Shown here: piece after piece, positions 15,001-18,000 of the stretch
How positions within the stretch are numbered: the first letter of the stretch is position 1
How the letters are laid out: each line of letters starts with the position of its first letter
Source: Coprothermobacterota bacterium
Lineage (GTDB): Bacteria > Coprothermobacterota > HKB111
NCBI GenBank assembly: GCA_037440465.1
Contig: JBBIUB010000001.1
Coordinates: forward strand, 96,001-160,000
Length of the DNA stretch: 64,000 nt
Direction: 5' to 3'
Program-made: the position numbers

Positions 15001-18000
15001 GAATGTCCTGGATTTTGCTGTACCCATAATGGCAATATTAACGGGGTTTTTTGTAGCTGCTATTTTAATAAAAGCTACTGGAAAAAGCCCTATAGATGCA
15101 TATAGGCTATTAATTCAAGGCGCTTTTGGGAGAACCTTCCAGGAATTACTATCCTTAAGGTTAGCTGGTGAAGGGTTGTTGAAGGGAGGGATTCTTGCTC
15201 TAACTGGACTCTCAGTAGCTGTAGCTTTTAAATCCGGTTTATTTAATATCGGAGCTGAAGGGCAGTTCATAGTAGGTTCTATTACTGCAGCATTTTTGGG
15301 CTTTAAATTACATTTCCCACCTTGGATAAATATCCCTATTATTCTCCTGGCTGTAATACTCACATCTGGATTATATGGAGCTTTAGCTGGTTATCTTAAA
15401 GTAAAAAAAGGTGTTCATGAAGTTATAACAACCATTATGTTGAACTGGACAGCGGTTCACCTCATAGAAAATTGGATAGTTGTTGGACCCTTCAATATCT
15501 TAAGATATTATCCCAGAGCAATCCGAGCGGGGACTCCTTATGTTCAGGATAATTCTCGCTTGTTTCCTCTTTTTGAGGGTACAAGATTGAACGCCACAAT
15601 TTTTATTGCTATTATAGCTGTAATAGTGGTTTACTATCTATTAAACAAGACCGTCACTGGTTACGAAATACAGGCAACTGGAAAAAATCCAGAAGCAGCG
15701 AGATATTCGGGTATAAAAACAGGAAAATCAATGATATTAGCAATGTTTATCTCTGGAGCTCTTGCTGGATTAGCCGGAGCATGTATGATACTCGGCACAG
15801 AAAAACAGTACCCTGGCGTATTCAGACCTGGTTATGGATTTGATGGAATTGCTATGGCTTTAATCGGAGCTACATCTCCAATTGGAACCTTTGCAACATC
15901 TCTTTTCTTTGGTTTTCTACGATCAGGAGCTACAAGCATGCAGCTTATTGGAATCCATAAAACATTTGCAGATATTATCCAGGGTACAGCAACCCTTTTT
16001 GTTGCCAGTCAGCTGGCAATAAGATATTTGATTATGAGGTTAGAAAAACGTAGAAAACCTGAGGTTAAAGAGATTATAAAAAGCGAGGTGCCCAAATGAG
16101 TATAATACAGATAATCATTTCTGTAATCTCTTCACTTCTAAAATTTGGGACACCCTTAATTTTAGCTGGCTTGGGTGGAGTGATTACTGAAAATGCAGGA
16201 GTTGTAAATATTGCTCTTGAAGGAATGATGCGGATAGGTGGATTTTTTGCTGTCTTTGGTTCTTATTTAACAGGAAATCCCTGGTATGGTTTAATATTAG
16301 GACTAATTGCTGGAGCTATAGCTGGATTACTCCATGCATATATTTCTGTTTCTCTTAAAGGAAATCAGATTGTAAGCGGAGTGGCCATAAACATATTCGC
16401 TCTTGGAGGAATTACATTTTTTTTGGAGAGATACTTTAACACAACTGGTCATTCACCTTCAGTTAATTCCTTTATAGACAAACCACTTTTCCCAATATTA
16501 GTTAAAATACCTGTTATAGGAGAAATATTTTCTGTTATGAACATATTTGTTTTTCTGGCAATAACACTTCCCTTCATAATTCACTTCTATCTTTATAGAA
16601 CTTCCTGGGGGTTAAGACATCGTTCAGTTGGCGAAAATCCTAAGGCTGCTGATACTATGGGAATAAATGTATATCTTGTCAGGTATATCGCAGTTATTAT
16701 CTCTGGAGCACTGGCAGGTTTATCCGGAGCATCTATTTCTATCGGTCAGTTAAGCCTTTTTGATAACCATATGCCTGCTGGCCTTGGTTTTATTGCCCTT
16801 GCAGCAATGATTTTTGGAAAATGGAAACCCATCGGCACTCTAATTGCTGCTTTTTTCTTTACCATGGCTACTGTGGCTCAGATATATATCCAGACACTTG
16901 CTCCTCACATTCTTAAAATAATACCCAGAGGCTTTTTCTTAGCTTTTCCATATATTCTCACCATATTAATCCTTGCTGGTTTTGTTGGAAGAGCAGTAGC
17001 ACCAGCTGCTGATGGTGTTCCATATGAGAAGGGAGAAAAACTCTAAAGAGAGGTTGTAAACTCTTGGTATTTTTCAAAAGATAAAAGCTCTTCTATCTTT
17101 TCTGATTCTGAGGGCTTTATTTTTGCTATCCACCCATCTTCATAAGGGCTTTGGTTTATATATTCGGGGTTTTCAGGCAAGGAATTATTAATATCTACAA
17201 CTTCTCCGTCCAATGGCATGTAAACTTCGCTAGCAGACTTAACTGACTCAACAACAGCTAATACATCTCCTGTTTTTAACAGTTTTCCAACTTGGGGTAA
17301 TTCAACAAAAAGAATATCACCTAATTGCCTCTGAGCATAATCTGATATTCCTACATTAAAAAACCCTTCTTCTTTAGGGCAAATCCATGTATGATCCTTA
17401 GTAAACCTTAAACTTGATTCATCCATTTTTCTTTCTCCTTCATTAAAATATTTAATATTTCTTCTTCACTTACTGGATAAAACTCATTATAGAACTCCCC
17501 CACAGCATAGAAAATATCTGGTACATGAAGAATAATTACATCTGAGGCTTTTATTTTAAGCCTTTCTACTGACTCTCTTGAACTAACCGGCGCTGCAACT
17601 ATCACTTCAGAAGCTCCTTCACGAAGTAAATAATGGAGAGCTGCCTCTACAGATAACCCCGTAGCAAGACCATCATCTATAAGAAGAACTTTCTTATTTT
17701 TAACTTCTCTCTTCACCAAGACTTTTCTGTAAGTTTTATCACGTTCCTTTAGTTCTCTATGGAAATTAGATGCTGTTTTTGTTAAATAATCGCTGGGTAA
17801 CTGAGCTATAACATATTCATCTTTTCCTTTGAAAATTTCCCCATCTAAAGTTACAATAGCTATTGCATACTCGGGATTACCTGGTGGTCCAATTTTTTTT
17901 ACCAAAACAAAATCCAGTGGTATTCTCATATTATCTGCTACTACGCTGGCTACTACCAATCCACCTCGAGGGAGTCCAATAATCAGGTCAGCTTGAAACT

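Follow-up and report, generated by a model that had tools for sequence, protein, structure and literature searches.

The H-protein homologue GcvH, encoded at 17043..17426 on the minus strand of the 64,000-nucleotide stretch of DNA that we analyzed (hereafter the window), probably functions as a lipoylated, protein-bound dithiol carrier outside glycine cleavage, in a relay that connects NAD(H) to lipoyl-GcvH through dihydrolipoyl dehydrogenase (Lpd). From the sequences we infer that GcvH is lipoylated, is reduced by Lpd and acts as a carrier. Four supports make this the best-supported reading: purifying selection on gcvH, the intact motifs of Lpd, LipA and LipB, the loss of a cavity glutamate from GcvH, and the location of other glutamate-less H proteins outside gcv operons.

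The gcvH gene, its product and its neighborhood

The 127-aa product matches PF01597 (GCV_H) in the Pfam profile search with 152.2 bits (cut-off 22.2), and among the NCBIfam models it matches TIGR00527 over its full length with 146.3 bits (cut-off 115.85) and NF002270 with 159.1 bits (cut-off 117). Solved H proteins match it at the 1e-34 level and share with it the fold family, the length and the lipoyl-lysine motif (ESVK), the lysine of which, Lys63, is invariant in 120 of the 120 nearest homologues and the query. They differ from it in the cavity residue Glu-14, which is replaced here (H12-T13-W14), and in that the family studied here lacks the P and T proteins of glycine cleavage. By family membership the product of 17043-17426 classifies as a genuine GcvH. 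Assignment to TIGR03077 ('not_gcvH', the chlamydial H-like protein) was rejected, as the score of 91.6 bits lies below the cut-off of 144.05.

The dN/dS of GcvH between two other genomes of the family, G012 and G010, is 0.109, and the values of five neighboring genes range from 0.056 to 0.248. With a ratio like that of its neighbors and a gene order kept across two genera, the gene is under purifying selection and not decaying. The three family GcvH copies contain 1, 1 and 0 cysteines, at differing places. A second GcvH of G010 was treated as a contaminant and excluded from the alignments and from the dN/dS estimate; it adjoins a large ORF of 456 aa, which we take to be SprA-like, in a bin with 10% contamination.

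Directly upstream of gcvH, and overlapping it by 19 nt, is the gene of a 217-aa phosphoribosyltransferase-domain protein (17408..18061, minus strand; PF00156, 71.2 bits). A bactofilin (18042..18422, minus strand; PF04519, 91.2 bits) and an M23 peptidase (18454..19368, minus strand; PF01551, 105.8 bits) belong to the same same-strand run. The order S41-HU-x-M23-bactofilin-PRTase-gcvH is common to G000, G012 and G010, which represent two genera of the family, and in three family genomes the phosphoribosyltransferase gene and gcvH overlap or abut. A domain search at the locus reported no SirTM, macrodomain or shdr gene among the neighbors of gcvH.

A lipoyl module without its enzyme partners

We searched the genome that carries the window (1.28 Mb in 35 contigs, 94.54% complete and 0.56% contaminated) with family profiles in six frames. 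LipB (TIGR00214, 144.5 bits, cut-off 83.55), LipA (345.4 bits, cut-off 310.25) and Lpd (TIGR01350, 434 bits, cut-off 408.8) all scored above their cut-offs. LipA retains both cysteine motifs and RSSY, LipB retains PCG, and the Lpd motifs CLNKGC and HPHPTLGE are retained in all four family genomes, so that the preliminary description of these three proteins as intact was borne out. LipA of G012 is intact as well, the flag '1 TAA inside' raised for it being the natural stop of the gene; the same flag was raised for LipA of G010. The genes gcvH, lpd, lipA and lipB are scattered over four contigs in unrelated contexts, and the context of lpd, lipA and lipB is uninformative.

The same six-frame searches gave no match to GCV_T, GDC-P, 2-oxoacid_dh (PF00198, E2) or E1_dh (PF00676). 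Remnants of GcvT, GcvPA and GcvPB were not found by tblastn with sister-family queries at E <= 1, which returned one chance match at 0.14. The reported absence of the glycine-cleavage T and P proteins and of the E1 and E2 components thus held. Only one protein exceeded the cut-off of the Biotin_lipoyl profile, and the profile's sole further match was a sub-threshold one on GcvH itself. The protein above the cut-off (41589..41966, minus strand) carries EAMKME and has a carboxyltransferase (42305-43846) nearby, which identifies it as a biotinyl carrier and not a lipoyl domain. GcvH is accordingly the only lipoyl-domain protein of the genome, as had been stated, and a lipoyl relay to E2 was ruled out, as the genome has neither an E2 nor another lipoyl domain.

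Across the phylum we compared, by six-frame searches, 13 genomes of 0.8-2.1 Mb, four from the same family (95, 94.5, 89 and 83% complete) and nine from two sister families. GCV_T is found in 0/4 genomes of the family, whereas it is present in 8/9 of the others, where the sole miss is a 68%-complete bin; this reproduces exactly the family-wide loss of GcvT described before. The absence of the P protein had been noted with the caveat that it relied on Pfam in one genome. It could be extended to the family, with GDC-P in 0/4 genomes against 9/9 elsewhere, and the loss of the P protein across the family is new here. E2 is likewise missing from all four family genomes. GCV_H was detected in three of the four, the miss being the 83%-complete bin, and Lpd, LipA and LipB in 4/4, 3/4 and 3/4, respectively. 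LipB as defined by TIGR00214 is confined to this family (3/4 versus 0/9). The sister families encode T, PA and PB in a single locus.

In the proposed relay, LipB would place octanoate on Lys63 of GcvH, LipA would insert two sulfurs into the GcvH-bound octanoyl group, and Lpd would couple the lipoyl dithiol/disulfide to NAD(H). Electrons would then flow from NADH through Lpd and lipoyl-GcvH to an acceptor, or in the reverse direction. As all the known users of such a carrier are gone, it is probably a general thiol electron shuttle.

Loss of a cavity glutamate and the genomic context of glutamate-less H proteins

The HEW motif of H proteins reads HTW in this genome and HVW in G012 and G010, and thus all three family GcvH copies are devoid of the cavity glutamate. 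HEW is kept in all eight sister-family copies that were aligned, and glutamate occupies this position in 114 members of a set of 120 made up of the query and its nearest database proteins. Glu-14 of Escherichia coli is listed in the available part of a preprint among the residues around the cavity of the aminomethyl-lipoamide arm, and alanine replacements at five cavity residues, Glu-14 included, are described there as strongly lowering the stand-alone H activity (bioRxiv 10.1101/2021.03.28.437365).

No gcvT, gcvPA or gcvPB was found within flanks of up to 6 kb beside glutamate-less H-protein genes at 18 loci, which were chosen by a pattern requiring H[VT]W, nor beside the glutamate-less copies at 14 loci of a metagenome sample, 13 of which belong to one clade; the two sets together (0/32) hold few independent clades. 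Glutamate-bearing copies of the metagenome sample lie beside gcvT/P at 56 of 63 loci, and at all 26 loci where 3 kb or more of sequence flanks the gene on both sides. In the GcvH tree the family proteins group with other glutamate-less proteins (support 95/84), apart from the GcvH of the sister families, in a topology with weakly supported deep branches (52/38). The loss of the glutamate in family GcvH and the location of glutamate-less H proteins outside gcv operons are new here.

Alternative explanations

It is extremely unlikely that glycine cleavage is complete in this organism and that gcvT and gcvP are hidden in genome regions missing from the assembly. The assembly is indeed incomplete and fragmented, and joint loss is possible given the single T, PA and PB locus of the sister families. 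Still, T and P are missing from all four family assemblies and present in 8/9 and 9/9 sister genomes, tblastn recovered no remnant, and the cavity glutamate is lost. That the lipoyl module is a functionless remnant of a former glycine cleavage system would be in line with the full system of the sister families, with the small genomes and ongoing gene loss of the phylum, and with a GcvH somewhat more diverged within the family than Lpd (59.5% versus 69.1% identity). We nevertheless judge it improbable, as the selection estimate and the conserved gene order argue against decay, four separate genes are intact in two genera, and LipB of the TIGR00214 type is present just in this family.

Retention of the H protein as an aminomethyl carrier could take the form of stand-alone glycine cleavage or synthesis, or of donation of the dithiomethylamine bridge to an [FeFe]-hydrogenase. 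Stand-alone activity of lipoyl-H in vitro appears in the part of the preprint available (bioRxiv 10.1101/2021.03.28.437365), the accessible part of another report states that H-cluster maturation in vitro requires aminomethyl-lipoyl-H (PMC11736057), and the genome encodes Fhs, FolD and MetVF of folate C1 metabolism. This role is very improbable, however, since the equivalent of Glu-14 is lost, the alanine mutants that include Glu-14 are strongly less active, and every route by which the aminomethyl form is known to arise requires T or P. The hydrogenase variant was rejected: Fe_hyd_lg_C has no match in this genome (G012 and G010 have weak matches of 44 and 34 bits), and HydG was found in none of the four family genomes. 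A non-redox role tied to the operon through co-transcription with the phosphoribosyltransferase, bactofilin and M23 peptidase genes, in which the H protein might store or relay octanoyl/lipoyl groups or serve in regulation, draws on the overlap or abutment conserved in three genomes and on the GcvH of Bacillus subtilis, which in the section of the report available is a lipoyl relay (PMC10332631). We consider it a poor candidate, because the genome has no acceptor lipoyl domain and the presence of Lpd in all four family genomes makes sense only with dithiol cycling. Finally, in what we count as a sub-case of the dithiol-carrier explanation, NADH, Lpd and lipoyl-GcvH would feed glycine reductase through the thioredoxin domain of Trx-GrdE or through selenoprotein A, as a second route beside TrxB. 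Grd occurs in all four family genomes, with a CxxU motif in GrdA and a Trx-GrdE fusion at the grd locus. For Eubacterium acidaminophilum, which has no Lpd, the accessible part of one report presents the thioredoxin system as thought to connect glycine decarboxylase and glycine reductase, and an exchange of electrons between H protein and thioredoxin has therefore already been proposed (PMC4056300). This route is unlikely in view of the TrxB above its equivalog cut-off (TIGR01292, 377.7 versus 343.45 bits), which makes the textbook glycine reductase route complete, of the sister genus in which Grd stands alongside a complete T/H/P set, and of the distance of gcvH and lpd from the grd genes. Of the preliminary description, the idea that a lipoylated H protein and its NAD-linked reductase remain as a stand-alone dithiol carrier is the best-supported reading, while the tie to glycine reductase is neither shown nor needed, as the organism has TrxB and a GrdE-fused thioredoxin domain.

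Candidate electron acceptors

Gene order ties no acceptor to gcvH, lpd, lipA or lipB in this genome, and the ranking of the acceptors of a GcvH dithiol carrier is tentative. First comes an OsmC-family thiol peroxidase, a possible partner by analogy with the Trichomonas hydrogenosome. An OsmC-like protein with two cysteines is encoded 5 bp upstream of the por genes; it is YhfA-like, with 94.8 bits below the equivalog cut-off of 138, and the family is found in 11/13 genomes of the phylum, so that its presence is nothing specific. Behind it and on a par with each other, both with a low chance, are the glycine reductase components discussed above (the GrdE-fused thioredoxin domain, or GrdA) and the MetVF methylene-THF reductase, which is suggested by analogy to acetogen clusters. 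An acceptor of some other kind is less likely again. The AhpD-type relay, composed of Lpd, a lipoyl protein, AhpD and AhpC, was rejected, as the CMD/AhpD family has no match in this genome.

The genome encodes cooC-fhs-metV-metF-cooC, and FolD is also present, with metVF, lpd and gcvH on contigs C9, C15 and C1, respectively, so that the adjacency of the acetogen type is not seen. According to the available parts of two reports, MetVF of Clostridium ljungdahlii was not driven by Lpd with free lipoamide, where lipoyl-GcvH was not the donor tested (PMC8515935), and a GcvH/LpdA donor model for MetVF was deemed unlikely by its own authors (PMC8760232). It is doubtful that glutamate-less H proteins form several independent and widespread clades of lipoyl-dithiol redox carriers unrelated to glycine cleavage and that NADH-Lpd-GcvH is the missing physiological reductant of MetVF or Trx-GrdE in this family and in acetogens.

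Comparison with known systems

The pattern has precedents, as far as the cited portions of the literature describe them, in the hydrogenosomes of Trichomonas and the Wood-Ljungdahl clusters of acetogens. In the former, OsmC is reported in the source's available part to obtain its electrons through the L and H proteins (PMC7946386). As described there, the hydrogenosome of Trichomonas vaginalis resembles our case in having H and L without P and T, in belonging to an anaerobe with an oxygen-sensitive PFOR, and in having an OsmC-family member. It differs in that we deal here with a bacterium and not an organelle, with de novo synthesis of lipoate through LipB and LipA, and with a YhfA-like OsmC protein that falls below the equivalog cut-off and belongs to a phylum-wide family.

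Acetogen Wood-Ljungdahl clusters are known to contain gcvH and lpdA genes whose role is unclear, according to the parts of two reports at hand (PMC8760232, PMC8515935), and as in these clusters Lpd and GcvH co-occur here with Fhs, FolD and MetVF. One Lachnospiraceae cluster (L110) reads Fhs-FchA-FolD-MetV-MetF-Lpd, followed by a glutamate-less GcvH (HVW). Its MetF and MetV are 60.6% and 55.0% identical to those of our genome, but its Lpd is just 31% identical, and the tree places the two glutamate-less GcvH in separate clades. Also in contrast to the acetogen clusters, gcvH and lpd lie here on other contigs than metVF, and several acetogens carry T and P elsewhere.

LbpA of sHdr sulfur oxidation and GcvH-L of Firmicutes are, in the portions of the literature used here, further GcvH homologues that act outside glycine cleavage. 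LbpA has two conserved cysteines, close to its N and C termini, and its own sLpl and LipS1/S2 genes, as opposed to the 0-1 non-conserved cysteines and the LipB and LipA found here. The GcvH-L operon has SirTM and a macrodomain beside gcvH, where the locus studied here has the phosphoribosyltransferase, bactofilin and M23 peptidase. One phrase search of the literature for orphan or incomplete GcvH returned papers on Trichomonas, acetogens and Staphylococcus aureus and turned up no comparable family of bacteria, and the main text and one supplementary file of PMC9751293, which holds the family label, do not mention glycine cleavage, GcvH or lipo-.

Implications

Loss of this one glutamate may serve as a simple marker in the sequence for telling such carriers from H proteins that truly act in glycine cleavage. 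Such a marker would improve annotation, because all these proteins are now named 'glycine cleavage system H protein', and it would also be useful in reconstructing how acetogens and anaerobes of the subsurface metabolize glycine and C1 compounds.

Lipoate is usually regarded as a cofactor that serves five enzyme systems. That a free-living bacterial family bears the cost of Lpd and of making lipoate de novo without those systems points to another job of a lipoyl protein, one with a bearing on fitness. The four-protein system of this family would be a small and tractable model for the unexplained gcvH and lpdA of acetogen Wood-Ljungdahl clusters.

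Inventory of the Lipoyl Module

The gcvH gene (window 17043-17426, minus strand) has 127 codons in one open reading frame. Along its entire length the product matched Pfam GCV_H (152.2 bits; cut-off 22.2); it also matched the NCBIfam models TIGR00527 (146.3 bits; cut-off 115.85) and NF002270 (159.1 bits; cut-off 117), and solved H proteins with E values of ~1e-34; the ESVK motif with the lipoyl-lysine is present. A run of genes on one strand ends with gcvH and encodes, ahead of it and in order, an S41 peptidase, HU, a 161-aa protein, an M23 peptidase, bactofilin and a phosphoribosyltransferase (PRTase)-domain protein, whose gene overlaps the gcvH start by 19 nt. 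A second paralogue of the latter protein, 28% identical, is encoded at C7:64371-64985. The gcvH stop (window 17043-17046) shares 4 nt with the stop of a convergent plus-strand gene, the last of a five-gene run (window 12080-17046) that, judged by sequence, resembles an ABC-type system for sugar/nucleoside uptake.

Six-frame profile searches of the genome (G000; 1.28 Mb, 35 contigs, completeness 94.54%, contamination 0.56%) found no GCV_T, GDC-P, E2 catalytic domain or E1; of 14 control genomes, 10 to 13 gave a match in each of these searches. No remnant emerged in G000 either when a sister family's T, PA and PB proteins served as tblastn queries. The Biotin_lipoyl search gave one real match (window 41589-41966), which bears the biotinyl motif EAMKME and has a carboxyltransferase nearby, and one sub-threshold match, GcvH itself; the sole PF03099 match was BirA (TIGR00121, 186.7 bits). 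LipB (C21:10713-11378), LipA (C4:3784-4704) and Lpd (C15:23601-24989) all scored above their equivalog cut-offs, with intact motifs that we take to be the diagnostic catalytic ones: PCG in LipB, CX4CX5C, CX3CX2C and RSSY in LipA, and CLNKGC and HPHPTLGE in Lpd. The inventory of the preliminary description, in which GcvH, LipA, LipB and Lpd are kept while T, P, E1 and E2 are absent, was thus correct.

Two neighborhoods were noted in passing. The biotinyl carrier is adjoined, within window 40068-43846, by a 504-aa protein with an ASG motif, presumably the mark of histidine/phenylalanine ammonia-lyases; together with a small membrane protein and the carboxyltransferase (42305-43846), this region looks like a biotin-dependent decarboxylase module. 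The same-strand run of LipB (C21:8956-13343; locus L016) also encodes a saccharopine-dehydrogenase-like protein, a 246-aa radical SAM protein without clear family, a nicotinamidase-like isochorismatase and a QRPTase-family protein (NAD salvage).

Conservation Across the Family

The orphan pattern holds for the whole family, which contributes four (G000, G010, G011 and G012) of the 13 species genomes in our phylum sample of three families. GcvT was found in none of the four and in 8/9 genomes of the other two families (the miss being a 68% bin), GcvP in 0/4 and 9/9, respectively, and E2 in 0/4. Lpd was found in 4/4 family genomes, GcvH in 3/4 (the miss being an 83% bin) and LipA in 3/4. LipB (TIGR00214) was present in 3/4 family genomes and 0/9 of the others, where different members of the ligase/transferase domain family are in place. 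One sister family has a gcvT-H-PA-PB operon; in the other, gcvT-PA-PB is separate from gcvH. Identity of Lpd among the three families is only 32-38%, that of GcvH between the two sister families 58-68% (loci L006, L048-L057), and the L proteins may be non-orthologous across the phylum.

The other genus (G012, G010) shares with G000 the gene order from the S41 peptidase to gcvH. Within that genus (dS was saturated between genera), GcvH of G012 versus G010 gave a dN of 0.073, a dS of 0.67 and a dN/dS of 0.109, and five neighbor genes gave dN/dS values of 0.056 to 0.248; gcvH is maintained by selection. LipA of G012 is intact, a flagged internal TAA being its natural stop, and a second GcvH of G010, from a bin with 10% contamination, was treated as foreign.

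Loss of the Cavity Glutamate

All three family GcvH copies read HTW or HVW at the place where the sister families have HEW. In a set of the nearest 120 database proteins that includes the query, 114 carried Glu, four Val, one Leu and one, the query, Thr; Lys63 was invariant. Glu-14 (E. coli numbering) is one residue around the surface cavity for the aminomethyl-lipoamide arm, and the H protein was less active on its own when cavity residues were mutated to alanine (bioRxiv 10.1101/2021.03.28.437365). The Glu replacement would fit a lost glycine-cleavage role.

Patterns derived from the family copies picked out 18 loci in species genomes, all with H[VT]W, as one of the patterns was built to require, and two of them from relatives of the family; gcvT, gcvPA and gcvPB were absent from all 18, in flanks of up to 6 kb. 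A metagenome scan with the Glu-less H protein P0107 gave 80 loci, 77 of which were examined (L145, L179 and L185, with the N-terminus missing or the start at a contig end, were left out). By alignment, 63 carried Glu and 14 were Glu-less (one Thr and 13 Leu, the latter a single clade with a single gene context). gcvT/P lay within the locus in 56/63 Glu-bearing versus 0/14 Glu-less cases, and in 26/26 versus 0/5 where at least 3 kb were available on both sides. In these samples, both non-random and from few clades, the Glu change sets apart H proteins encoded away from gcv operons. A 44-row GcvH tree, its deeper branches unresolved, grouped the family copies with other Glu-less proteins (support 95/84), apart from GcvH of the sister families (97/92) and from a Lachnospiraceae clade (100/98).

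Glu-less copies lie in several contexts. Flavobacteriia loci encode ArsR, DUF6428, a metallophosphoesterase, GcvH and an SBF/ACR3-type transporter (annotated Flavobacteriaceae example L111 3673-7421, with HTW; similar, L112-L119 and L124), and the lipoyl dithiol of such an ars-like operon could serve arsenite binding or arsenate reduction. Loci L123, L127, L129 and L134, of betaproteobacterial-looking context, form a clade of stand-alone homologues (HLW or HVW), always between topA-like plus carboxypeptidase-like and holC/pepA/lptFG-like genes (names by eye), with no gcvT/P nearby. Metagenome contig L206 (27-7600) encodes a 145-aa GcvH-like protein (HTW) flanked on one side by an HdrA-like flavoprotein and on the other by GlcD-like, GlcF-like, lipoate-ligase-like and radical-SAM genes, named by eye from N-termini only.

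A Proposed Dithiol Relay and Its Candidate Acceptors

We know of no enzymatic loading or unloading of the aminomethyl group without P and T. Since there is also no E2 to take the lipoyl group, dithiolane redox chemistry, cycled by Lpd, is what remains. We lean towards a relay in which electrons would pass between NAD(H), Lpd and the dithiol of lipoyl-GcvH, with candidate acceptors only.

A tie to glycine reductase was suggested in the preliminary description. The grd locus, outside the window (C7:11384-17489; L019 7384-13489), encodes a fused 546-aa GrdE with an N-terminal thioredoxin domain, an 856-aa fusion of GrdC-like and GrdD-like domains, and GrdA (CFVU...) and GrdB, both of which contain a TGA in frame; after the locus come genes for 2-oxoacid:ferredoxin oxidoreductase and glutamate dehydrogenase. 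TrxB is present, presumably of the NADPH type by its HRRD motif, and with Trx-GrdE it completes the textbook electron route. Grd occurs in 4/4 family genomes, and also in 4/5 genomes of a sister genus with a full T/H/P set. For E. acidaminophilum, an H protein-thioredoxin link has been proposed (PMC4056300). We favor the stand-alone lipoyl dithiol carrier with its NAD-linked reductase; that this carrier serves glycine reductase in particular is possible, yet unsupported.

MetVF is another candidate acceptor: on C9 the genome carries cooC-fhs-metV-metF-cooC and a second fhs with folD. A comparable role of Lpd/GcvH is suspected in acetogens, whose clusters include lpdA and gcvH of unclear role (PMC5039349). 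GcvH/LpdA was drawn as a MetVF donor and then deemed unlikely by the same authors (PMC8760232); the C. ljungdahlii enzyme was driven by reduced thioredoxin, not by Lpd plus free lipoamide, and lipoyl-GcvH does not figure as a donor in the passages used (PMC8515935). A Lachnospiraceae locus (L110) with a Glu-less copy reads Fhs-FchA-FolD-MetV-MetF-Lpd-GcvH; 57 of 117 relatives of its protein have Glu and 34 Val, the best ranks being mostly non-Glu; 116/117 retain Lys, and Acetitomaculum ruminis has HVW.

Peroxide reduction is a further candidate use. In Trichomonas hydrogenosomes, lipoate electrons reach OsmC via the L and H proteins (PMC7946386), and Ohr is cited as a lipoyl-dependent peroxidase. 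The relay proposed here would be a bacterial variant, with de novo lipoylation, of a carrier role known from Trichomonas and suspected in acetogens. The one OsmC-family gene of G000 (C4:40182-40601; L072 1390-1809) encodes a YhfA-like protein of 139 aa with two Cys, below the equivalog cut-off, and ends 5 bp upstream of the gamma and delta genes of pyruvate/2-oxoacid:ferredoxin oxidoreductase (por). The OsmC family occurs in 11/13 phylum genomes; a family search found no AhpD in G000, and C9 carries rubrerythrin, a flavodiiron-like protein and desulfoferrodoxin.

[FeFe]-hydrogenase H-cluster maturation requires aminomethyl-lipoyl-H in vitro (PMC11736057); this role was rejected, as G000 has no Fe_hyd_lg_C match and its family no HydG.

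The original observation is confirmed and extended. Most useful among the new points is the lost Glu as a possible marker of H proteins that do not serve glycine cleavage; our literature search found no report of such a marker.
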